Notes: generated by a model from the letters alone, not told the origin. DNA of 64,000 bases from Candidatus Heimdallarchaeota archaeon (GCA_011364965.1 RDOB01000004.1:116360-180359); one strand, 5' to 3'; shown: positions 22,302-63,254, counted from the first letter of the stretch. A program made the numbers and translations.

Positions 22302-23555
22302 TCACTCCTTAATTTTAAAAATTTCAGTATAAAGTTCATTAGCTCGCTCTCCTCTCTCAACAAGAGATTCCTTGAATTGAGCTAATTCTTTTTCTTTCAG
22401 CTTTATATCCTCATCGTTTTCTGCGATTTTTACTTTAAGTTCCTCCATTTGAGATTCAAGATCTGTAAGCTTTTTATTTATTTCAATATACTCTGGTGTT
22501 TTCTCATTGCTAATTTGAGCTGCTTCCAAAGTCTTCCATTCCTCCTTCATCTTATTCATTTTTCCACTCTTTATCTGATTCAGCTCTTGTCGTAGATTAT
22601 TGATATCCTTTTGTTTCAATTTTAACTCAGTTTCCCCAATTTTCAGCAATTCCTCAATTAAAGCGGTAATTTCTGGGTTCTCATCGGTTTCAGTTAAAAA
22701 TCTCTGAACAGGGTCTTCTTCATAAGACAGTGCTGCATTTACAAGTCCAAAATCCCCCGAAAATGTTCCACGTTGAATCTCTCTTGCATATTTCTTAAAT
22801 ATTTTTTTGAACGAATTTAAATGCTTACCCAACTCAATTTCAAGCTCTCTCATTCTAATTGTCCGTTGCCTAGATGACTTAATCAAGATATTTTCAAGAT
22901 ACAGAGAAATTTGTTTTTCAATTTCTATCTCTTCTCTCTTTAATGTTTCAAGACGATTTTGAGCTTCCATCAATTCGTTTTTTGTGTCTTGAATATTATC
23001 ATCTAATGTATTGACTTCAGTTATAATGTCCCTTAAGTCCTCAATAGTTTTAATTATTTGATATTCATTTTTCTGGAGTTCACGAAGCGTAGATAACTCT
23101 GATGCCAACTTTCCAATGGGTACATAAACAGAACGCTTTTTTAGCATGAAATCTAAACCCATTATTGAATCAGTTTGTTTTGTTTCCTGATTTACATCAT
23201 TTATCAATCTAGAAAAGGTTCGAATGAATTGATTGAATTCTGAGGAGGTGAATTGATGATTAGGATCAGGTACATCAAAATCATTGAATTTATCAGCAAG
23301 AAGATGTACCAATCGATTTATTGCTTTTAATGAGTTAAAATAAATTTTACCTTTTTTAGTGATTTTTTTTACTCCCTCCTCGGTCAATTGAGGATCCGTT
23401 TCTTCAATGAGACTTTTACATCCTTCTTTGACTTTGTCAGTATTTTTAACAATTGATTCTCTTATTTTTTTGCTGTTATTGTAAGCATTTGAAATTTCTT
23501 TCTTTTTTTGGTCTTCAATTTGCTCAATATACCCTAAAATCTCTTTTTCTAACAT
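22302..23555 (-). CDS. Coiled-coil hypothetical protein
   Basis: E/K-rich heptad stretches flank a central globular segment. No ATPase motif. Confidence 0.8.
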   Translation of the reverse strand: MLEKEILGYIEQIEDQKKKEISNAYNNSKKIRESIVKNTDKVKEGCKSLIEETDPQLTEEGVKKITKKGKIYFNSLKAINRLVHLLADKFNDFDVPDPNHQFTSSEFNQFIRTFSRLINDVNQETKQTDSIMGLDFMLKKRSVYVPIGKLASELSTLRELQKNEYQIIKTIEDLRDIITEVNTLDDNIQDTKNELMEAQNRLETLKREEIEIEKQISLYLENILIKSSRQRTIRMRELEIELGKHLNSFKKIFKKYAREIQRGTFSGDFGLVNAALSYEEDPVQRFLTETDENPEITALIEELLKIGETELKLKQKDINNLRQELNQIKSGKMNKMKEEWKTLEAAQISNEKTPEYIEINKKLTDLESQMEELKVKIAENDEDIKLKEKELAQFKESLVERGERANELYTEIFKIKE

Positions 23556-23562
23556 AGGTTTC

Positions 23563-23958
23563 TCATCTGCCCTTTTTTGCCTCGTAAATTGAAGTTAGAA
23601 ATAGTTCATCGAGTTTTGTAATCATAATCTCTAAGTATGGATCTCCTGTTCCTTTATCTCTGATACCAATTGTGATGTGATTAACTTCCCCATCAACAAT
23701 ATCCGCGAAATTTAAACCCAGAGGCGATGTACTGGCATTTTCCCAAATCTGAGGTAAAATAGCAGATAATTGCTCAAATTCAACTGCTTCCATATCAACA
23801 ATTGATCCCTCTCTTCTTTTTAACCCAGTTAATGGAAACCCATTTTCATCGCTAACAAATGATGAAATAACTTTATGCTTACCTTCTCCTGTTAACATCT
23901 GTTTTGATAAAATGGCACGAAGAGATAAGCGCATTTGGTCTTCCAGATTTTGACCCAT
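23563..23958 (-). CDS. Roadblock/LC7 (MglB/LAMTOR-like) domain protein
   Basis: Helix, then VISSFVSDENGFPL beta-hairpin, helix (FEQLSAILP) and three strands; 131 aa. Confidence 0.6.
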   Translation of the reverse strand: MGQNLEDQMRLSLRAILSKQMLTGEGKHKVISSFVSDENGFPLTGLKRREGSIVDMEAVEFEQLSAILPQIWENASTSPLGLNFADIVDGEVNHITIGIRDKGTGDPYLEIMITKLDELFLTSIYEAKKGR

Positions 23959-49865: not shown

Positions 49866-50666
49866 ATGAGTAAAAACCTTGTATTAAATTTGATCTGGAG
49901 AAACGATGAATTTGTGATAACTGATTCGAAAGCAGATACTTTAGGTGACGAGGCTGTTCTCACAATCGATGAGAACAAAGAATCAATTTCACTTAGAATT
50001 CCCAGCCATTTTTCATTAATTTCAAAGAAAATCATTGAACGTAGAGTAGCCTCTATCGCCAAAAGTGGTTTTACAATCCCAAAGTCCCAAATAAGGGTTG
50101 GATTAGGTTTTGAAATTTCTGTTTCCACTGAAGAAGTCATACCTGATGTTCTCCTTCAAGAAGGTCATAAATATTCCTACGATGAAGGATTTACCGCGGT
50201 GAAAAGAGTAACTGATACTTCTAGTGTTCCTGAACCAGAAAAATATATCGTTTCAGATGAGGAATACGTCCCTTCATTTTTAAAATATGAATCTGAAGGT
50301 TCTTCGGAGATTAGAAAAGTTGCTAGTCATGAACCAAAAGTAGAGAGAACACAAGTTCAAATTGAACCAGAGAAGGAACCCGAGACAGTTCCAGAGGCAC
50401 CACCACAACCTGACCAGATTATTGATACAGGAGAAAAGCTGACCGAAAATGGTGAAACCGTTGCTGGAAGATTTATTTTAGCACTCTCTAAAACGGGAGA
50501 TGTTTACCTCTCTAGGAAAGAAAATTATTTCATTGCTGAGTATTCAGTTGGCCGAGTAGAATTCGAGGTAGTAAATCAGAAAATAAATATTCTTGCAACT
50601 AAACGAATTCCTGAAAATGATCAAACTCTTAATCAAGCGAAGGAATTTGCGGAAGAAAAAATATAA
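49866..50666 (+). CDS. Hypothetical two-domain protein; N-terminal domain possibly a divergent gelsolin-like fold
   Basis: EAVLTIDENKESISLRIP..SLISKKIIERRVASI parallels the gelsolin core of 56327..57292. Confidence 0.6.
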   Translation: MSKNLVLNLIWRNDEFVITDSKADTLGDEAVLTIDENKESISLRIPSHFSLISKKIIERRVASIAKSGFTIPKSQIRVGLGFEISVSTEEVIPDVLLQEGHKYSYDEGFTAVKRVTDTSSVPEPEKYIVSDEEYVPSFLKYESEGSSEIRKVASHEPKVERTQVQIEPEKEPETVPEAPPQPDQIIDTGEKLTENGETVAGRFILALSKTGDVYLSRKENYFIAEYSVGRVEFEVVNQKINILATKRIPENDQTLNQAKEFAEEKI

Positions 50667-53410: not shown

Positions 53411-53965
53411 ATGAAAGTATGTTTGCTTGGTGATGGAGCTGTTGGTAAGACTGCTTTACGAGAGAGATATTTAGGCAAACAATTTTCCAGTGGTTATGTG
53501 ATGACAATTGGAGCGGATTTCGCGGTAAAGAGATCACAAATCATGACCGAAGAAGGAGTAAAAGATGTGAAGTTCCAAATTTGGGACTTAGCGGGACAAC
53601 CCCGTTTTAATAGTGTAAGAGAGTTGTATTATAAGGGAAGTCATGGAGGTCTTCTTGTTTTTGATATAACTAGAAGAGATTCATTTACAAATTTAGGAAA
53701 CTGGATTGATGAATTATATAAAAATTCAGGTAGAGGTCCCATGCCCATAACTGTATTAGGTAACAAAGTAGATCTCCAAGATGAAGTAGAGAACCCAGTT
53801 ACAAGAGAGGAAGCTATAAAGTTTATAGAAGAATTAAAAAAGAAAAAAAGCATCCCTTACGATGTTATCTACTTAGAAACTTCCGCAAAAACTGGTATAA
53901 ACGTTGATGAATCTTTTAATATACTTGCAATGACAATCAAGAAATATCTTACACGAACGAAATAA
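53411..53965 (+). CDS. Rab-like small GTPase
   Basis: GDGAVGKT, TIGADF, WDLAGQ, NKVD, ETSAK. No C-terminal Cys. Confidence 0.95.
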   Translation: MKVCLLGDGAVGKTALRERYLGKQFSSGYVMTIGADFAVKRSQIMTEEGVKDVKFQIWDLAGQPRFNSVRELYYKGSHGGLLVFDITRRDSFTNLGNWIDELYKNSGRGPMPITVLGNKVDLQDEVENPVTREEAIKFIEELKKKKSIPYDVIYLETSAKTGINVDESFNILAMTIKKYLTRTK

Positions 53966-53983
53966 GAACTTGAGACCCCCCGA

Positions 53984-54550
53984 TTGGTAACTATTTTAAG
54001 AATTGGCCACCGTAAAAAACGAGATAAACGTATAACCACCCATTTAGCTTTATCTGCACGCGCTTTTCAAGCAAGTAACATCATAATAGCTGGAGAAGAA
54101 GATCTTCAACTTCAAGAATCAATAAATAAAGTTACCGCAGAATGGGGAGGAGACTTCCAAATTTCAATGATCCCCTATGACGATTGGAAACCATTTGTAA
54201 TCCAATGGAAGTCCGAAAAAGAGGAAATTATTCATTTATCTATGTATGGGGAAACGCTTAGTGTTTTCGAGAATTCAAACGATTTCAAAATGCTAATAAA
54301 TGATAATAATAAACTTAATAACCTACTCATTATTGTTGGGGGAAAGAAAGTTCCTAGAAAAGTATTTGAATTAGCAAAGTGGAACATTGCGATAGGAAAC
54401 CAGCCTCATTCAGAAGTAAGTGCACTAGCTGTATTTTTAGATCATTTGAATCCAAAAGCATTGGATACCTGTTTCATGGGAGCAAAGCGTGAAGTAAAAC
54501 CTTCAATATTTGGGAAAAAAGAGTATAAAGATGAAAATTATGAGGAATAG
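53984..54550 (+). CDS. trm56: tRNA (cytidine(56)-2'-O)-methyltransferase (aTrm56)
   Basis: LRIGHR..RDKRITTH..L.ARAF, HLSMYG and NQPHSEVSALAVFLD. Confidence 0.93.
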   Translation: MVTILRIGHRKKRDKRITTHLALSARAFQASNIIIAGEEDLQLQESINKVTAEWGGDFQISMIPYDDWKPFVIQWKSEKEEIIHLSMYGETLSVFENSNDFKMLINDNNKLNNLLIIVGGKKVPRKVFELAKWNIAIGNQPHSEVSALAVFLDHLNPKALDTCFMGAKREVKPSIFGKKEYKDENYEE

Positions 54551-55064
54551 GAAAATACAGATTGGAGTAATCGGAGATTCGCAGATTCAATCTCAAAAAC
54601 AATATGATATTGCTTACAATATTGGAGTAGAAATATCAAGAGTAGGTGCTATTCTAATATGTGGAGGACGAGGGGGGGTTATGGAGGCTGCGTGTAAGGG
54701 AGTCTTTGATGAGGGTGGAATTTCAGTAGGAATTTTACCATTTGATAATCTTGATCCAGAGATAAACAAGTACTTAACTATTCGAATTCCCACAAACTTG
54801 GGATGGACAAGGAACTCTCTTGTTCCACTCGCTTCTGATGGTGTTATTGCTTGTGGAGGAGGAGTTGGAACCCTATCAGAACTTGCATTCACAGCTTTAA
54901 CTCATAAACCGCTCATATGTATAGTTGAAATCCCTGGATGGAGTGATAAAATAGGCCAAGCTGGCTATATAGATTTAAAAGAAAAATATGAAAAACTCTT
55001 CGCCACTACCTCAGGGAAAGAAGCAGTAACCTACTTGGTAGAACAAATACTAGCCACCCAATAA
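54531..55064 (+). CDS. TIGR00725 / LOG-like Rossmann-fold nucleotide-binding protein
   Basis: CGGRGGVMEAACKG, VGILP, RN and GGGVGTLSE. Confidence 0.9.
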   Translation: MKIMRNRKIQIGVIGDSQIQSQKQYDIAYNIGVEISRVGAILICGGRGGVMEAACKGVFDEGGISVGILPFDNLDPEINKYLTIRIPTNLGWTRNSLVPLASDGVIACGGGVGTLSELAFTALTHKPLICIVEIPGWSDKIGQAGYIDLKEKYEKLFATTSGKEAVTYLVEQILATQ

Positions 55065-55886
55065 TGAGAATAATCCTCCTGCTCCTGATTGGCTTGAAAA
55101 TATGTCTTTTATTCCATCACATAGAACTTTCAATAAAATATCCTCGTGCACATTGATTAAATCTGAATAAAGATCAAGAATCTCAAGGAATGCTTCCTCA
55201 TCTTCATTTTCGACTGCTCTGAAAATAGAGTTTGTGATTTCTAGGTATCTTGCCTCTATTGGGTTTTCTTCTTGAACGTTTTTACCATTTGACATTAATA
55301 AGTATTTGCCACAGCTTCCAATTTCATAAGCGTTTATTTCTGCTAAAGTGAGATAAGTCCGTATTCTTGCAGATAAATTTGTTGTTTCCTCACTATATGT
55401 TGAAAGGGCCTCAAAACACTCTACGTATTTCTTTTTTTGACATAAAATGCCAGCATAAGTATAATAAAGGTCAAATATTACATCATCGACAACTTCAGCT
55501 TCCAAAATAATATTATAATAGTGAAGGAGGAACTGATCATCTTGAAACGCACGTTCAGTAATAATTTGGGAATAAATATTTTGTAACCGAGAAAATTGAG
55601 ATTCTTCTCTCACTAGTTTGAATATCGCTTTAATCACCTCTACCCATTCTCTCTTATTTCTTACGGACCTAATCCCCAAAATGTAATTACTTATTAAATT
55701 AAAGGCTAATTTATCATGGTTAGCTTCTAAGAAAAGGGGGATAGCATCATTTAATATATTACTAACTATTTCAGGATCATTGGATTTCAAAGCTCGTTGG
55801 TAAGCTCCGAGGAGCATTTGATATCCGTCAAACCAGTGGCCAGAGGAAAGTTCCTGTAAACCTCTATCTACCCATGGATTTTTCAC
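55050..55886 (-). CDS. Alpha-solenoid protein, Get4/TRC35-like candidate
   Basis: N-terminal GHWFDGYQML....R and C-terminal AV......F......Y...DGIKDIF..GGLFSLLGG resemble Get4. Start placed at GTG 55886 after GTAGTGAT. Confidence 0.55.
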   Translation of the reverse strand: MKNPWVDRGLQELSSGHWFDGYQMLLGAYQRALKSNDPEIVSNILNDAIPLFLEANHDKLAFNLISNYILGIRSVRNKREWVEVIKAIFKLVREESQFSRLQNIYSQIITERAFQDDQFLLHYYNIILEAEVVDDVIFDLYYTYAGILCQKKKYVECFEALSTYSEETTNLSARIRTYLTLAEINAYEIGSCGKYLLMSNGKNVQEENPIEARYLEITNSIFRAVENEDEEAFLEILDLYSDLINVHEDILLKVLCDGIKDIFSSQSGAGGLFSLLGG

Positions 55887-56326
55887 AATAATCACTACGA
55901 TTTCATATTTTTGGACTAAAAGAGATACATTAAGGACAAGAGTCTTAATTTTGAGATCTAAGTACAAATGAAAAATTAAAACGCTTATAAAGTTATAGTG
56001 ATGGAGAGGTTTAGATCAACCATTTCATTTGAAATAAGATTATACTAATCTTTTCCATGCTAATTATCATTTACTATTGGGATAATTTGTTATAAATATG
56101 ACAAGAGCCCTTAGACAGACTAAATCTTAAATATGGGTTCAAAAAACAATTTTATTAATGATGATAGATATTATTTTTAAAGGAAAAACTCAAGAAACGG
56201 GTGTTTGAATAGCGAATAACGCGCGGATTTAAATTCGTGTATTTAATATTCTTCCTAACCAGATAGATTGATATTACTATCTGTCAAGCTTTATAAATTT
56301 TCGTTGTTTACAGAAGTTGATAAAAA

Positions 56327-57292
56327 TTGAGCAATTCTGAATTTATAAAACAATATACTGTTAATGATGACGGCACTCTTAATCCCATCTCTATTTCTTC
56401 CTTCTCTGAACTGACTCAGGATAATGTTTTCATAATTGTTGAAGAAAACGCAAGAAAAATTTTCATATGGAAGGGAGAAAAGGCTCCTGTACGAAGAAAA
56501 TTTATATCTGCAAAAGCAGCTCAACAAATGAGAGCTGAAGAGTATGGGATGGTTTATCGGATTGAAAGCCTTGATCCTGGCCTGGAGGGGTCAGACTTTC
56601 TCTCAATCTTTGGTATTACTGCAACAGAAGCCCCAGAAATCGATTATGAATCTGATTTGGCGACAGTTATGGATTCAGTGCCCGCACCAGCTCCAACAAT
56701 GAGACCTACTCCAGCACCGGCTGTAACACCTCAACCAGCACCAAAAATAGAGACAGTTCCAAAAAGCGTGCCAATATCAGCCGAAACAATGCAATCAGCT
56801 GTAAAATCTACTCCAAAACCAGTTCCTGCGACAATAACTCCGACTGAAAGTAGACCAGCTCCTGCAGCAAGAGTTAGTGCTCCAGTAACACCAAGCCCAA
56901 AACCCACTAGAGTTGTTAAAGAAACAGAAGTGGTTGTAACCGAACCAGTTAGGACTAGTGCAATTGCATCATTAGATGAAATTAAAGTCAAATTGAAGGA
57001 GTTAGAAATTCCTCAGAATATGGAACGTGAGATTATTATAGTTGGAAATGTAGTATTTTCAGTAATAAAAGAACATCTTGCCTTATTCTCGAAGGATGTC
57101 GTAAAGTTAGAACCTATGAATGACTTACCAGCTGGAATTTTCCCTGCTTCCGATTATCAAGTAAGATTATTTATAGAAAAAGAGAAAGTAATGTTTGTTG
57201 AGCTATTAAGAAGAAAAACCAGATCAGAAAGAGAAGAATTTGTTGATGATATGAGAAAATCGCTCCAAGATTTGTCAAAGTTAGGATTATAA
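56327..57292 (+). CDS. Single-domain gelsolin/villin-like protein with Pro/Thr/Ala-rich linker and C-terminal domain
   Basis: LTQDNVFIIV..KIFIWKGEKAPVRRKFISAKAAQQM..PGLEGSDFLSIF is a gelsolin repeat signature. Confidence 0.85.
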   Translation: MSNSEFIKQYTVNDDGTLNPISISSFSELTQDNVFIIVEENARKIFIWKGEKAPVRRKFISAKAAQQMRAEEYGMVYRIESLDPGLEGSDFLSIFGITATEAPEIDYESDLATVMDSVPAPAPTMRPTPAPAVTPQPAPKIETVPKSVPISAETMQSAVKSTPKPVPATITPTESRPAPAARVSAPVTPSPKPTRVVKETEVVVTEPVRTSAIASLDEIKVKLKELEIPQNMEREIIIVGNVVFSVIKEHLALFSKDVVKLEPMNDLPAGIFPASDYQVRLFIEKEKVMFVELLRRKTRSEREEFVDDMRKSLQDLSKLGL

Positions 57293-57308
57293 TTGCAGGA
57301 GATTCAAA

Positions 57309-57845
57309 ATGAGTGAAAACGAGTATTTGCTAAAGATTTGTGCTATTGGCTCTGGGAGTGTCGGAAAGACTTCACTAATTCGTCGTTATGCTGAAGGTAA
57401 ATTTACAACCAATTACTTACCCACGTTAGGGGTGGATATCACAACTAAGAAAATTCAAATTGCTAATAATCAGGTGAAACTCATCCTTGTGGACACAGCG
57501 GGACAAGAATTCTTTGGAAAACTTAGACCCAGTTATTATAGAGGAGCATCTGCCTGTCTAATCATGTTTGCTTTGAATGAAAAGAAAACGTTTGATGCTG
57601 TTCCAAATTGGTTAGCTGAATTCAGAAAGCATATTCCTGAATCTACCATTCCTATTGCTTTAGCTGGAAATAAAAAAGATCTAGAAAAAGACAGACAAGT
57701 ATCCACCGAAGAAGCTAAAAAATTTGCCACAGAGAGAAATATGTCGTATTTTGAGACTTCAGCTAAATTAGGTGGGGATGAAATTGAACAAATTTTTCAT
57801 AATTTAGCTCAGGACGCCTTAAACACACGAAATAGCTATAAATAA
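57309..57845 (+). CDS. Rab-like small GTPase
   Basis: GSGSVGKT, YLPTLGVD, DTAGQE, YYRGA, NKKD, ETSAK. No C-terminal Cys. Confidence 0.95.
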   Translation: MSENEYLLKICAIGSGSVGKTSLIRRYAEGKFTTNYLPTLGVDITTKKIQIANNQVKLILVDTAGQEFFGKLRPSYYRGASACLIMFALNEKKTFDAVPNWLAEFRKHIPESTIPIALAGNKKDLEKDRQVSTEEAKKFATERNMSYFETSAKLGGDEIEQIFHNLAQDALNTRNSYK

Positions 57846-57869
57846 TCATAAATTCAATGGGATGTACAA

Positions 57870-58622
57870 ATGACAGCAAACGCGGATTTTGAAGTTATAA
57901 AAAGAGACCATCAAGGAGTTCCTGTTGTCAAAATTGTCTTCTGGGGGCCAACTCTTGCTGGGAAAACTACTGCTCTTACTATTACAAAGGTTCTAAAGAG
58001 CCTAGAAGACCCAGAAAATGTCTATAAATTCCTCAAACTTGAAGATCCAACCGGGCGAACATTATTTTTCGACCAAGCGATTTTTGGGATTGGAAAGACA
58101 ACTGCAGGCTTACCAATATTAAAATATCACTTATTCACAGTTCCTGGTCAAGAACGTCATTCTGGGCAGCGCAAGGTAGTGCTTAGAGGAGCTCACGGTC
58201 TGATAATCGTTATTGACTCTGAAAAATCTCGCTGGGAAGAGAATAAGTTTGCATTAGAAGAAATAAATCAATTAGCTGGAGACAAATTAGCTAATGGTAC
58301 ATTACCATATCATATTATGTTAAATAAGATGGATCTTCCCAAAGAACAGCGAATATCGGCATTAGAGGTAGGAAAATTATTAAGTGAATCAAGGGTAGTG
58401 GCAAGTCTTCGAGATGCTGCGGTTAGAATTGTAGAAGTATCCTGTTTGGAAGCACGTGACGATTTAAAGGCCTTACTTTCATCAGGGGATCGAAGTAAAA
58501 TTGTCGACCAAACTGGAAAATTAAAAAAGGAATATCGCCCCCCAAGTGTAACACGTGTTATTAAATCTGTGGAAACTCTTATACGAGAAATAATAATTCA
58601 AATGATGAAACAACAGCAATAG
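57870..58622 (+). CDS. MglA-type small GTPase
   Basis: KIVFWGPTLAGKTT, RTLFFD (intrinsic Arg), FTVPGQ, RKVVLRGAHG, NKMDLP. Confidence 0.9.
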   Translation: MTANADFEVIKRDHQGVPVVKIVFWGPTLAGKTTALTITKVLKSLEDPENVYKFLKLEDPTGRTLFFDQAIFGIGKTTAGLPILKYHLFTVPGQERHSGQRKVVLRGAHGLIIVIDSEKSRWEENKFALEEINQLAGDKLANGTLPYHIMLNKMDLPKEQRISALEVGKLLSESRVVASLRDAAVRIVEVSCLEARDDLKALLSSGDRSKIVDQTGKLKKEYRPPSVTRVIKSVETLIREIIIQMMKQQQ

Positions 58623-58662
58623 TGAATTTTTCAAATTTCCCTAATAGCAAAGGAGATTTTAA

Positions 58663-59301
58663 GTGAGAATCTCGATACTAGATGAAAATTCGCTTGAAAA
58701 TATTGCGTCACATCTCAGAAAAGGGGGAATAGGTGTATACCCAACGGATACTGTTTATGGGCTAGGTACTCTTGCCTTGAAATCAAATGACCTGCAAATA
58801 ATGAAAATTTATCAAATTAAAAGAAGGTCATTTGAGAAACCACTGAGTCTACTAATCACAAATGAAATGATAAATAAATATATTGAAGCAAGATCGGATA
58901 TTCTGGCATTTCTTAATAAGAATTGGCCAGGAAAGTTAACAGTAATTTTAAGACGCAAAAAAAATGAAATATATCCCCTTTCTGATTTATTAAACTATAA
59001 AAATCCAGATAAAATTGCTTTTCGTGTGCCTGATAATGAGAATCTATTAAAAATCATTGATTTGATTGGATATCCCATCATTGGTACGTCTGCTAACCTA
59101 TCTGGAACAAAATCGAAATTAGATCTGGATTCTGTATTAAAAGAGCTTGATTCAAAGGATATTACTCTTTGGGTAGATGGTGGAAGATTGCCACCAACTC
59201 CTCCGTCCACTATTTTAGATTTTACGAATCCAAACGAACCAAGAGTGGTAAGAACTGGTAGTGGTAATATTAAGGGTTTTAAAAATCATTTTACTCCATA
59301 A
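58663..59301 (+). CDS. tsaC: L-threonylcarbamoyladenylate synthase (YrdC/TsaC domain only)
   Basis: YPTDTVYGL, KRR..KPL, WPGKLT, RVPD, TSANLSG, PSTI. Confidence 0.93.
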   Translation: MRISILDENSLENIASHLRKGGIGVYPTDTVYGLGTLALKSNDLQIMKIYQIKRRSFEKPLSLLITNEMINKYIEARSDILAFLNKNWPGKLTVILRRKKNEIYPLSDLLNYKNPDKIAFRVPDNENLLKIIDLIGYPIIGTSANLSGTKSKLDLDSVLKELDSKDITLWVDGGRLPPTPPSTILDFTNPNEPRVVRTGSGNIKGFKNHFTP

Positions 59302-59425
59302 ATTTTAAATCAATTCGAATTAGTGCCTAGATAATACTTAATTCTTAATACTTTGATTATTTTGATACAACTTTCAATATAAGAATATAAATAAGGAACT
59401 CTCATAGAAGAAAGAATGAACAAAC

Positions 59426-61270
59426 ATGAGTTCTTTATCGGCTTCAAATGACATTCTTGTTATTCATCAAAACAGAATCATCTTTAGCTCTGGTAGTGGG
59501 GCGTTAACACAACATAGCAAAATTAGTGCAACAGTAACCCAAGTTTTAAATCTTTTTTCCCAGAAAATCATGAAAGGAGAACAAATACACTTTATAAGGT
59601 TTGAAAATCATCGCATGATATTCTTATTCTCCCCTGCAAGGAAAGAAGAATTAGTAGCAATTGTTTTAATCCCAATAGATCGAAGCGCAAGGCAAATTTT
59701 ACCTACAATGAGCATGATTTTAGGATTATTAGAAGAATTTCTCCAGGGTAATATTCTAGACGCACAAAATCGTCATTTAGATTGCTTTCACCAAATCTTG
59801 TCAACTCATGAAGATTCTTTATACATCATCCCTCGAACAGCAGATGGAATATTAGCAGCGTTAGTACTACTAACGGCTTTCGCTCATGATATGCAGCTTG
59901 GAATCCAAAAAGTTGTTTCTAATATAAGATTTATAAACCCACAGAAACCTCAAGAAATCAGTAATATACTGCATCAAGCAGAAAATAAAAGGATTCTATC
60001 TTTTATCGATATTCCAGAAGCAGAGACGAGAGAGAATATTCTTGTATTCGGTATTGAATCTCCACTAAGGCAATATTTCTCTGCATTGCCAGGCGAACGT
60101 ATTTATGATGCATTAGGTAGGATATTTGGTGAGAAATCTAATGCTGCTAAGATGAGATCATTTATTGCTAATGAAGATGCCCAAGAAATAGCACAATCAA
60201 TATCATTATTTCCTGAATCAGAAGATGGGTTTATTAGAAAAGAGATTCTACTGAATACTGTATTACAACCAGGGAAAGATATAATTGTCTCGATATCTAC
60301 TCCTGTTATGCAAAAGTTACGAGAATTGTCGTCAACAACACGAGAAACATCACGCGTTAAACATAAATTTCCAAAAGATGTTCCTGTTGATGACCTTGAT
60401 GCTCTCACGGAACACCTTATAGAGGAGGAAATAGCTGAAGTAAAACCAATTGTTCAGGACCTAGGAGTAAAAAATGCTCAAGCATTATCAGCAGAGCCCG
60501 ATGCAATTCCTTCTGCTATACAAATAGAACCAATTACCACTATTCCATCTCGAAAAGTTACCAAAGAAACAATGGTTCAATTGGAGAAAGCGAAAAAGGG
60601 AGGACATGAATATAGATTCAATTCTATCCCCATATTATTAGATACATCTCCATTTGCTTTAAATATAACAGAAACGGATAGCTTACCTTATGATCCCTCA
60701 AAAATGACAATTCGTGTTTTTAATAATCAGAATAGACAATTTTGTATCCATATCTTGACTTCTTCAGATAGACTTCCACCTTTGAAAGAATCAATGGAGG
60801 ATTTGTCTATGAGATTAGGGGGAGAAACTCAGTTGCACAAAGATCATATCTCGATTCAAGGTCCTGTTGAAAAGCAATCTAATGCGATTAAAGCCCTTCT
60901 TTGGCTTTTAATTGTAGAATATTTAACACAAGTAGAATTAAATAAATTTCCATTATCGAAACGTTTCGAGATTCCTAGAGAGGGTTCTATTTTAATAATT
61001 CCACCTAAACGTGACTTTGTTCGTGAAAAAATACCATCTAAATTTAAAACCTTTGTAGTAGAGGAAGAAGTAAGGAGGAAGATTGAACAAGAAGCATTAT
61101 GGACATTAGGACAATCTCAAGATACCTTAATCTCCAAATTAATGGAACCATTAAAACATGGTGAAGGAGTTGTTTTCATTGCGTCAGATAGGAACCAAGA
61201 AATGGAAGAAATTGCTCTATTCCTTCTTTTAGTCTCTGAAACTTGTGGTATTGGATTTTCTAGATGGTAG
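59426..61270 (+). CDS. N-terminal longin-like domain protein with DENN-like alpha/beta segments
   Basis: beta-beta-alpha-beta-beta-beta-alpha pattern (ILVIH/RIIF, VTQVLNLFSQKIM, IHFIRFENHRMIF, LVAIVLIP), followed by helix-strand-helix units. Confidence 0.55.
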   Translation: MSSLSASNDILVIHQNRIIFSSGSGALTQHSKISATVTQVLNLFSQKIMKGEQIHFIRFENHRMIFLFSPARKEELVAIVLIPIDRSARQILPTMSMILGLLEEFLQGNILDAQNRHLDCFHQILSTHEDSLYIIPRTADGILAALVLLTAFAHDMQLGIQKVVSNIRFINPQKPQEISNILHQAENKRILSFIDIPEAETRENILVFGIESPLRQYFSALPGERIYDALGRIFGEKSNAAKMRSFIANEDAQEIAQSISLFPESEDGFIRKEILLNTVLQPGKDIIVSISTPVMQKLRELSSTTRETSRVKHKFPKDVPVDDLDALTEHLIEEEIAEVKPIVQDLGVKNAQALSAEPDAIPSAIQIEPITTIPSRKVTKETMVQLEKAKKGGHEYRFNSIPILLDTSPFALNITETDSLPYDPSKMTIRVFNNQNRQFCIHILTSSDRLPPLKESMEDLSMRLGGETQLHKDHISIQGPVEKQSNAIKALLWLLIVEYLTQVELNKFPLSKRFEIPREGSILIIPPKRDFVREKIPSKFKTFVVEEEVRRKIEQEALWTLGQSQDTLISKLMEPLKHGEGVVFIASDRNQEMEEIALFLLLVSETCGIGFSRW

Positions 61271-61301
61271 AGACAAGGCTAAAAGAATTTCTTACTAAAG
61301 A

Positions 61302-61372
61302 CTGCTATTGTATCGATCGGCTGAGGCCTCCCGTTGCGATGATGCATGTATCGTCCGGAATAGCAGATAAGC
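61302..61372 (+). ncRNA. Putative single-hairpin box H/ACA pseudouridylation guide RNA (SSU rRNA 790-loop target)
   Basis: 8-bp lower stem, GUAUC/GUCCGG pocket, upper stem, K-turn/K-loop (CUGA + GAU-GAUG), and an AUA box 14 nt from the pocket apex. About 54% GC in AT-rich intergenic DNA. Confidence 0.7.
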
Positions 61373-61704
61373 TTTCAGCTGGGATCTTTTTGGAAATTCT
61401 AGTCAAATTGTCTTGCCAACTAGAAAAATTAAATGATAATACCTATACAAGCATATTTGAGTAAATCCAAGGATGATTCTAGTTTTATTAATTAAAAACA
61501 AAAATTTATGAACCATTTAGAATGGAAAGAGTTTGGGAAACGTAAAAAAGTGATCAATTAGAACTAATATTTATAACTTAGATTAGGTTGAATTGGTTAA
61601 AATAATATTAACTGAGTCCATAAAACAAAGATAGTGTATACTTCAAACTAAAAAATTAAATAAATTTCATTGAAATCAAATCTACACTCATAGGGTTTAT
61701 TCAA

Positions 61705-62571
61705 ATGATAAGGACAATTCGCAAATTTTCTAAAAAAACACGAGGAATTTCTCCCGTGATAGCCACAGTTCTTTTAATAGGATTAGCTGTCGTAGCAGGT
61801 ATTGCAGTCGCCTTAGTGGTTTTTGGTACATTGAATACTCCCACACCATTAAGAATTGAGATAATATCCATATCTGATTTTAAAACAACTGATGATGACA
61901 CCTTAATCGATCAATTTTCTGTAACATTACATAATACAGAACGTACAAATGGTCTGATTTTAACAGATTCTTTCAAACTATTTTTCCAGAATCTAACTGA
62001 GCAATTAGGTTGGGAAATGAATCTTTCAAATACACAAATAATTCTTCCTGCCTTGGAAATTCAAACTATTCCATTGTATTGTAATCCTAATGAAGATCAA
62101 AACGAATTAACACCTAAAAATGATACCCTTTATATTGAAGTAACCGTCTATCCGGAGAGCAGTACGAATCCAAGAAACGCTAAGAAATTCCGATCAGATT
62201 TACTAATAATGGGAGACACTTATGGACCCGTGTCCATTCAAGCTACCGCCCAAAATGCATTATTTGATGATTTGGGGAATAATATTTCTATAACAGCCAC
62301 AAATCTAGGCAGTATGGAACTAGATCTGTATTTAGAGTTTTCTACTACAGATTCTCAGGATATTTTCTTTGCAATAGGGGGAGAAAATAAAACACGATTC
62401 GATTTCTCAATTGGTAGTTATGGGGAAGTTATTATGCCAAATTTAACCTCATTATATCCTACAGAACACGCTGTAGCTGACCAGAGTTTCATAATATTAA
62501 TTACATTATGGGATCAGAATAATTTTCGCCTTTTAGCTTCTAGAAGCTTACTATTAACCTATACAGGTTAA
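61705..62571 (+). CDS. Archaeal type IV pilin-like protein
   Basis: Class III signal peptide KKTRG|ISPVIATVLLIGLAVVAG; beta-rich body. Confidence 0.88.
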   Translation: MIRTIRKFSKKTRGISPVIATVLLIGLAVVAGIAVALVVFGTLNTPTPLRIEIISISDFKTTDDDTLIDQFSVTLHNTERTNGLILTDSFKLFFQNLTEQLGWEMNLSNTQIILPALEIQTIPLYCNPNEDQNELTPKNDTLYIEVTVYPESSTNPRNAKKFRSDLLIMGDTYGPVSIQATAQNALFDDLGNNISITATNLGSMELDLYLEFSTTDSQDIFFAIGGENKTRFDFSIGSYGEVIMPNLTSLYPTEHAVADQSFIILITLWDQNNFRLLASRSLLLTYTG

Positions 62572-63254
62572 TTGCTCTTCTTGGAAATAAGCTTTACCCT
62601 GAAAATTTCGTAATAACCTATTTCCCTACTCTCATCCCAATGTACCTCTGCTTCCTCAATTTCAATTCGAGAAGGAAAAAAAGGAGCATCCAAGACAAAT
62701 GATTCATATTCACCGCCTTCTCCTGTGACACTTATTTGTTCGTCCACTGCTTGTTGCCTTATCCTGCTTATCAAAGATTGCGTAATTCTTTTACCAAGCA
62801 AATTCCTTTCAAAACCCATAGCAGCGACTGAGACAAAAATAATGTAAAAATTATTTTCTAGGAGTTCATTCATCAATTGTAATGGTGCTAGTCGCCATAA
62901 TGGATTGAAACATCGAACTCCCGCGAGCGCCGCAGCCCGATTGAATTTATAACGCTGAAATTCGGAACGAATTCCCCCTGTAATAATCGCATCGACCTGA
63001 AGATCATTGAATGCTCTTTTAAGAGTTATAATCTCATTGGAAAGATCACAGGACTCAATTAGAATCTCTTTATAAGGAATATTTAGCATTTCAGCCATAA
63101 ATCTAACATATTTACTATTTGGAAGGTGAAATAGAAGGCTTTCATTACAATTTGAACGTACAGTGATTATGGCGATTACATTGTATTGATGGAGTGCTAC
63201 CCATAAAGCCAATATAGAGTCTTTTCCTCCAGAGACGAGGCATGCTACTTTAAT
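62568..63254 (-). CDS. dph6: Diphthine--ammonia ligase (probable ATT start)
   Basis: In-frame upstream extension IKVACLVSGGKDS (PP-loop), plus GGIRSEFQ, PLW and GEGGEYESFVLDAP. Confidence 0.9.
   Translation of the reverse strand: MKVACLVSGGKDSILALWVALHQYNVIAIITVRSNCNESLLFHLPNSKYVRFMAEMLNIPYKEILIESCDLSNEIITLKRAFNDLQVDAIITGGIRSEFQRYKFNRAAALAGVRCFNPLWRLAPLQLMNELLENNFYIIFVSVAAMGFERNLLGKRITQSLISRIRQQAVDEQISVTGEGGEYESFVLDAPFFPSRIEIEEAEVHWDESREIGYYEIFRVKLISKKSN

Follow-up and report, generated by a model that had tools for sequence, protein, structure and literature searches.

A short run of genes in a Hodarchaeales genome may tie an actin regulator of the GelX type to two small GTPases. The run lies in a stretch of 64,000 nucleotides (nt) from Candidatus Heimdallarchaeota archaeon (GCA_011364965.1, RDOB01000004.1:116360-180359), which we call the window and on whose whole length all positions are counted; the genome is labelled G000. 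Six open reading frames (ORFs) on the + strand (Table 1) encode, in order, a gelsolin-domain protein (Gel), a Rab-like GTPase, a GTPase of the MglA family, TsaC, a Hodarchaeales-restricted protein of 614 amino acids (aa) and a pilin-like protein. Hodarchaeales is the Asgard order closest to eukaryotes, and the genome is assigned to it by the names that near-identical proteins carry. Our tentative reading, to which we would give slightly less than an even chance, is that Gel-Rab-MglA(-TsaC) is a Hodarchaeales unit co-expressing a GelX-type actin regulator and two GTPase switches, and that the three proteins work together. All the parts belong to known families and the novelty is their wiring; full-text literature searches found no paper describing a Gel-Rab-MglA cluster.

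A preliminary description of this DNA, made by a model from the sequence alone, had reported co-oriented genes with gaps of 16, 24, 40 and 124 nt, a pilin after a further 434 nt and a divergent gene in front, and the ORF coordinates bear this out. A TATA-like box (TTTATAAAT), read from the sequence ~30 nt 5' of the TTG start of the gelsolin gene, is probably the promoter of the operon. A GGAG Shine-Dalgarno-like site stands 8 nt 5' of the Rab-like GTPase gene, and a GGAG-like site also precedes the start of TsaC. Given the TATA-like box, these sites and the small size of the first three gaps, the genes from Gel to TsaC look like one predicted transcription unit. The 124-nt spacer 5' of the 614-aa gene is AT-rich and could hold a promoter of its own.

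Gene order was followed in 21 genomes of the same genus and two of the sister family (G022 and G023). Gel and MglA share contig and strand in 19 of the 21 same-genus genomes, and the intact order Gel-Rab-MglA-TsaC-614aa is present in ten fetched loci of the genus, as well as on a metagenome contig with a 614-aa homologue at 48% identity. Within the sister family, where Mrr-like and S8 protease genes replace TsaC, G022 has Roadblock, Gel, Rab and MglA contiguous, then the 614-aa gene and a pilin, between flanks unrelated to those of the window, and G023 keeps the Gel-Rab pair. Loss of synteny had been set beforehand among the observations that would sink the idea of a GTPase-actin module; what these genomes show is conservation, both across the genus and, with different flanks, in the sister family.

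A second line of evidence comes from other Asgard lineages. A hidden Markov model (HMM) built from the eight Roadblock ORFs of the genome itself was run on 14 GelX loci outside Hodarchaeales, drawn from five other GTDB families. In 14 of 14 it found a Roadblock ORF 2-202 nt downstream of GelX, on the same strand in 13. The GelX-adjacent Roadblocks form one orthologous group, and their counterpart in G000 is on contig C16, at 23259-23693, among unrelated genes. Genes of the GTPase system thus accompany GelX in two distinct ways, as Rab and MglA in Hodarchaeales and as Roadblock elsewhere. As far as gene order can tell, this pair of independent arrangements strengthens the case for a functional link between gelsolin and GTPases, and is the strongest argument for it.

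The clustering could also be an operon of convenience, co-transcribed and co-inherited within one order, in which GelX acts on actin and the GTPases perform unrelated membrane or signalling tasks. An unrelated tRNA-modification enzyme, TsaC, is indeed embedded in the run, the trio is confined to Hodarchaeales with most of its conservation coming from one GTDB genus, and as a rule Asgard GTPases do not share operons with their regulators (PMC10933270). However, the trio survives in G022 though both flanks and the TsaC slot have changed, and the constant company of Roadblock in the other families would be difficult to account for if GelX were unconnected with GTPases. We therefore hold mere convenience to be unlikely, and keep to the reading in which the three proteins work together.

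Several further observations weigh against that reading. The support for it consists of gene context and predicted folds, and a housekeeping TsaC inside the run means that co-transcription is no guarantee of shared function. MglA is on another contig in G023, where convergent genes follow Rab, and G015, of the same genus, has no orthologue of Gel or MglA and retains the 614-aa gene. Elsewhere in the class, orthologues of the MglA-like GTPase (39-48% identical) lie among unrelated genes, and outside Hodarchaeales GelX is not beside Rab or MglA. As to the proteins discussed below, the kinship of the C-terminal X domain of GelX to that of Thor 1DGelX is putative, judged from the published description; the N-terminal domain of the 614-aa protein has no profile similarity to the eight Roadblocks of the genome (hhalign probability 0.8%); and Gel, Rab and MglA do not neighbour the distant homologues (26-31% identity) of that protein. 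The break in G015, a single-contig genome, can be located (locus L021, G015:C1:697000-716000): none of Gel, Rab and MglA is present, TsaC is reduced to the C-terminal third, and the gene of an ABC transporter directly adjoins the break. Either a segment was deleted or two pieces were joined in assembly, the truncated TsaC making an assembly artefact possible.

The first gene had been described as encoding a gelsolin-domain protein, and both sequence and model agree. The Pfam Gelsolin repeat does not reach its gathering score (15.7-18.2 bits for a cut-off of 21; E-values 0.002-0.013), and phmmer against the PDB retrieves Asgard gelsolins at E-values from 8e-7 (7c2g) to 2e-4. In the AlphaFold2 (AF2) model the gelsolin domain (residues 1-105; predicted local distance difference test, pLDDT, ~90 over residues 1-100) aligns with Thor ProGel 7c2f_D at a Z-score of 16.5 and a root-mean-square deviation (rmsd) of 1.2 Å over 88 residues, and its Foldseek template modelling (TM) score is 0.81. 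It is followed by a disordered Pro/Thr/Ala linker (~106-212), variable in the GelX alignment, and by a strongly conserved alpha-beta5-alpha domain (~213-321), the X domain. This last domain has no clear fold match in the PDB; it was considered as a second gelsolin domain and rejected, its best matches being Cache/PAS-like sensor domains at Z 3.8-4.9, and a protein-language-model Atlas search with it returned only unnamed Asgard clusters (score 0.80). It is present in 354 of 400 Asgard genomes, within ORFs of ~270-320 aa, and full-length alignments to GelX of other families show the same two-domain layout. Layout and distribution fit the published GelX/1DGelX architecture, compared by its published description. 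Thor 1DGelX severs actin (PMC7444086), B35_GelX of L. ossiferum co-precipitates with Lokiactin, and Hodarchaeales cells crawl by actin-dependent protrusions (both bioRxiv 10.1101/2025.11.30.690169). G000 encodes one actin, at C11:401338-402444. Elsewhere in the window, ORF 49866-50666 (+) was tried as a cryptic second gelsolin and discarded, since its BLASTP match to GelX is one of Pro-rich low-complexity linker (E-value 0.38).

A gelsolin fold does not have to act on actin. The gelsolin-like domain of Sec23 contacts Sar1 and helps GTP hydrolysis, and the protein encoded here could likewise act on the GTPases, as a Sec23-like partner or GTPase-activating (GAP) element in membrane remodelling. 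The domain of Sec23a is among its fold matches (2nup_A, Z 9.8, rmsd 3.1 Å over 90 residues), and an invariant basic stretch, APVRRKF, opens its long helix in the alignment. Moreover, Asgard Sec23-like proteins have no gelsolin domain and free gelsolin-domain proteins are common (PMC11914678). The actin-binding gelsolins are nevertheless much closer to the model, ProGel above all but also the domains of gelsolin, adseverin and villin (Z 12-14), and the proteins of the same architecture mentioned above are those that sever actin or co-precipitate with Lokiactin (PMC7444086; bioRxiv 10.1101/2025.11.30.690169). We consider a Sec23-like role distinctly improbable, and retain GelX as a putative actin regulator.

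The identities proposed for the two GTPase genes also stand. The first matches Pfam Ras at an E-value of 8e-51, and the PDB chains that match it best are without exception Rabs (Rab21, Rab4, Rab22 and Rab23, ~1e-35). It ends in ...NTRNSYK, with no C-terminal Cys prenylation motif, and its orthologues have no C-terminal Cys either, which is why we call it Rab-like and not Rab. The second was said to be of MglA type with an intrinsic Arg. It matches MglA in the PDB (6hjh) at an E-value of 4e-20, versus at least 3e-3 for Arf and Rab chains, and its RTLFFD motif in switch I holds this Arg (R63), while its G3 motif is TVPGQ, with Thr replacing Asp. Across 27 sequences R63, T64 and G93 do not vary and Q94 hardly does. 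It further carries a conserved C-terminal extension of ~55 aa. Genus-wide, MglA is 84-91% identical, versus 43-67% for the housekeeping neighbours NadA, Dph6 and TsaC.

The genome encodes other relatives of these GTPases. A short MglA paralogue of 193 aa is flanked by two Roadblock ORFs (G000:C13:49163-51347, L070), a locus that looks like a canonical MglA/MglB-type unit. Another MglA-like paralogue, of 234 aa and 51-55% identical, lies ~6 kb before the start of the window (G000:C12:109358-110020, - strand; L044:7950-8654), adjoins a urocanase gene and has no GTPase-related neighbours. Upstream of the cluster, a second Ras/Rab-like GTPase heads a block on the + strand (53411-55064) with aTrm56 and a LOG-like gene (SLOG cluster 4); the block is conserved across the genus, and this GTPase is also near the cluster in G022.

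It had been stated that no MglB is encoded in the cluster. This is right at the level of sequence, Pfam and the HMM of the genome's own Roadblocks revealing no canonical Roadblock (Robl_LC7) ORF there, and less certain at the level of predicted fold. Two genes downstream of the MglA-family GTPase, the 614-aa protein begins with a predicted domain (residues 6-110, pLDDT ~80-90) whose best fold match is MglB itself (6izw_C, Z 10.4, rmsd 2.3 Å over 97 residues). Other matches are 1j3w_C (Z 10.2), 5ldd_D (Z 10.1, rmsd 3.3 Å over 98 residues), 5y3a_G (Z 9.9) and 3cue_C (Z 9.5), and Mon1, TRAPP and Ragulator subunits are found among them together with Asgard Roadblocks. The models thus support a five-stranded roadblock/longin fold that can be superposed on GTPase platforms. 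A complex prediction for the MglA-like and Rab-like GTPases with residues 1-305 gave a score of 0.01 for a mark of 0.32, which speaks neither for nor against binding.

The rest of the 614-aa protein is of another kind. Its AF2 model (pLDDT 82) consists of two bodies separated by a disordered linker (306-369): an N-terminal one, in which a DHH-like alpha/beta and helical region (112-305) follows the roadblock/longin domain, and a C-terminal one (375-614) that ends, throughout the family, in an invariant ...SRW. The family is very small, with 30 cluster representatives in a set of 1.84 billion proteins, and its gene is present in 21/21 same-genus and 2/2 sister-family genomes and in 0/17 genomes of other families of the class. 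No Pfam family matches the protein at an E-value of 10 or less, and the family profile retrieves only adenosine kinase from the PDB sequences (E-value 0.07). A match of a 2976-aa protein to residues 439-538 was rejected as coiled-coil compositional. The preliminary description had proposed a longin-DENN protein. The longin, or roadblock, part of that proposal is upheld by predicted structure; DENN was not seen in Pfam (E-value of 10 or less) or among the listed best matches of Foldseek against the PDB, VIA-align and the Atlas, the domain not having been folded alone.

What these searches recover is DHH/DHHA1: residues 112-505 match 5ght in Foldseek (E-value 2.4e-6), GAN 5ghr_C with Z 8.8 and rmsd 4.7 Å over 180 residues, and DHH/DHHA1/CID clusters of the Atlas. 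Since DHH-family shapes come first in both Foldseek and the Atlas, the protein might be an active DHH/DHHA1 phosphoesterase, hydrolysing nanoRNA, phosphoadenosine phosphate (pAp) or cyclic dinucleotides, and the cluster a nucleotide-signalling unit. However, the family alignment has no conserved His, DHH or GGGH motif, its only invariant residues being L43, F59, G141, D155 and W614; there is no Pfam DHH or DHHA1 match at an E-value of 10 or less, and the TM-scores of the DHH-type matches are below 0.3. An active enzyme is therefore highly improbable, and the region resembles, in the model, an inactivated DHH/DHHA1 scaffold.

The N-module (residues 1-305) is found in another setting: in same-genus genomes it shares 42% identity with the N-terminal half of an ABC-ATPase fusion (L064:8034-9731, +; the same gene in L063 and L065-L068) that was not found in G000 and whose conserved operon also encodes a permease of MacB/FtsX type, another ABC ATPase and a ~670-aa protein. 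The N-module is therefore a reusable cytoplasmic one. Two distant homologues of the 614-aa protein (26-29%; L075:5651-6826 and L077:5658-6836) have a Band_7/SPFH gene (~391 aa) one or two genes upstream. The link of the 614-aa protein to the GTPases is weak.

A broader model had been put forward, in which a longin-DENN guanine nucleotide exchange factor (GEF) would switch the Rab/MglA pair and so couple actin to type IV pilus polarity or adhesion, by analogy with Myxococcus. The sixth gene does encode an archaeal pilin-like protein (TIGR02537, 28.1 bits for a cut-off of 20, with the motif KTRG/ISPVIATVLLI), its place 434 nt downstream is as described, and the MglA-family GTPase and pilin genes are within 3 kb of each other. 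A pilin also follows the 614-aa gene in 8 same-genus loci, L079 and G022, and on the opposite strand in G023. Yet it is missing there in 5 of 13 same-genus loci (L021, L022 and L024-L026), and the 434-nt spacer before it contains a conserved small-RNA-like element. This G+C-rich element of ~75 nt, directly 3' of the 614-aa gene in AT-rich surroundings, recurs at the corresponding place in 10 of 15 related loci (blastn; 89-92% identity over 36-48 nt, or matches at both ends), next to proteins only ~55% identical, and is kept in loci that have no pilin. No Rfam family was found in the 55-64 kb region at an E-value below 0.5, and the fold of the element is no better than that of shuffled sequences. 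ORF 61264-61464, which overlaps it, was dismissed as a gene because it has no homologue in related loci.

With its variable absence and the conserved element in between, the pilin is probably a separate unit; it appears to be a passenger outside the transcription unit, and its inclusion in the module is not supported. Since, in addition, the 614-aa protein has no DENN match and its distant homologues do not keep the link to GTPases, we regard the pilus model as very unlikely. From the original idea of a GTPase-actin module we thus retain what conserved synteny and the independent GelX-Roadblock pairing support, and set aside the DENN part of the candidate GEF and the link to the pilin.

How, then, might GelX and the GTPases work together? 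In the mechanism we envisage, the MglA-like or the Rab-like GTPase, or both, would recruit or gate GelX when bound to GTP, so that actin would be severed or capped at particular places on the membrane, for example where protrusions grow or retract. Elsewhere among the Asgard archaea GelX would be wired to a GTPase through the neighbouring Roadblock, a regulator of MglB type. The 614-aa protein may be an optional, lineage-specific scaffold whose N-terminal domain could offer a GTPase platform (GAP- or GEF-like), a weak link in this scheme. That GelX is a direct, nucleotide-dependent effector of one of the two GTPases, or is bound through a Roadblock adaptor, is a more specific claim, which we consider possible but unlikely. 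If true, this would be the first prokaryotic pathway from a small GTPase to an actin regulator, and would foreshadow in an archaeon the Rho/Rac-type control of the eukaryotic actin cytoskeleton; it would work in the protrusions of Hodarchaeales cells.

The remaining features of the region are listed in Table 1. The fourth gene is TsaC, as had been proposed (TIGR00057, 148.3 bits for a cut-off of 123.2), and is probably a passenger of the operon. The divergent helical protein, previously called Get4-like, matches no Pfam family and no PDB sequence at an E-value of 10 or less. Beyond the pilin, the Dph6 ORF with a TTG start (62568-63212, -) aligns to the Pfam Diphthami_syn_2 profile from position 15 onwards, hence its N-terminal nucleotide-binding loop seems to be encoded 5' of the first canonical start, consistent, on sequence grounds, with a non-canonical start of Dph6 in this region.

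Table 1. Features of the Gel-Rab-MglA region, with positions in the window
Feature	Position	Strand	Basis or remark
Second Ras/Rab-like GTPase	53411..53965	+	Heads conserved block with aTrm56 and LOG-like gene, upstream of cluster
Divergent helical protein	55050..55967	-	Position conserved within genus only
TATA-like box TTTATAAAT	56289..56297	+	Read from sequence; putative promoter
GelX-type gelsolin, 321 aa	56327..57292	+	Sequence matches to PDB gelsolins, AF2 model, family alignment
Rab-like small GTPase, 178 aa	57309..57845	+	Pfam Ras, PDB matches
MglA-family GTPase, 250 aa	57870..58622	+	PDB match, conserved motifs
TsaC/Sua5-type threonylcarbamoyl-AMP synthase	58663..59301	+	TIGR00057
614-aa Hodarchaeales-restricted protein	59426..61270	+	Family alignment, AF2 model, fold comparison
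G+C-rich small-RNA-like element, ~75 nt	61298..61374	+	blastn conservation
Archaeal type IV pilin-like protein, class III signal peptide	61705..62571	+	TIGR02537

Asgard genomes encode dozens of small GTPases and a regulated actin, and almost no GTPase has been assigned a partner. Operons rarely help in this assignment, and in general the genes for Asgard GTPases do not share an operon with Roadblock or longin genes (PMC10933270). The gelsolin described here belongs to a type whose severing of actin has been demonstrated elsewhere, and gene order connects it with GTPase-system genes in two ways, which names a small set of proteins for asking whether GTPases controlled actin before eukaryotes arose. 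A Hodarchaeales strain that crawls by means of actin, M. peptidophilum HC1, is now in culture (bioRxiv 10.1101/2025.11.30.690169), and the question can thus be addressed in cells. With the gene context and predicted structures at hand, the cluster can be taken as a concrete, testable lead on archaeal actin control.

Among known systems, the first gene is to be compared with the pan-Asgard GelX/1DGelX proteins of Thor (PMC7444086) and L. ossiferum (B35_GelX, bioRxiv 10.1101/2025.11.30.690169), with which it shares a single gelsolin domain, a long disordered linker, a C-terminal domain and a length within ~270-320 aa. It differs in being in an operon with Rab-like and MglA-like GTPases, the Roadblock that is its neighbour in other Asgard being encoded elsewhere (C16). 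The published domain X is a predicted coiled coil, whereas the X domain here is compact and alpha-beta5-alpha in the AF2 model, the kinship of the two being putative. The Sec23 gelsolin-like domain with Sar1 offers the same association of a gelsolin fold with a small GTPase, but its likeness in fold is lower (Z 9.8 versus 16.5 for ProGel), and GelX is a free protein and not a coat subunit.

The MglA/MglB switch of Myxococcus xanthus and Thermus thermophilus (PMC3199381, PMC4316618) has the same switch I Arg, G3 Thr and catalytic Gln as the MglA-family GTPase described here, and in both cases a roadblock-fold domain, here a predicted one, is encoded within four genes. However, the cluster has no canonical Roadblock gene, the GTPase has its C-terminal extension, and it is encoded beside a gelsolin and a Rab-like GTPase instead of motility or Frz genes. 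For the 614-aa protein, the longin/roadblock platforms (Mon1-Ccz1, Fuzzy-Inturned, TRAPP Bet5/Trs23 and Ragulator) superpose on residues 6-110, but the protein has one clear domain of this sort, with no obvious dimer partner and no profile similarity, and its remainder is DHH-like, not tri-longin or DENN. That remainder (112-505) shares its overall shape with the DHH/DHHA1 proteins of the RecJ/GAN/Cdc45 and NrnA types, from which the 614-aa protein is set apart by the loss of catalytic motifs, a different arrangement of domains (whole-chain rmsd ~18-21 Å) and the fusion to an N-terminal roadblock/longin domain.

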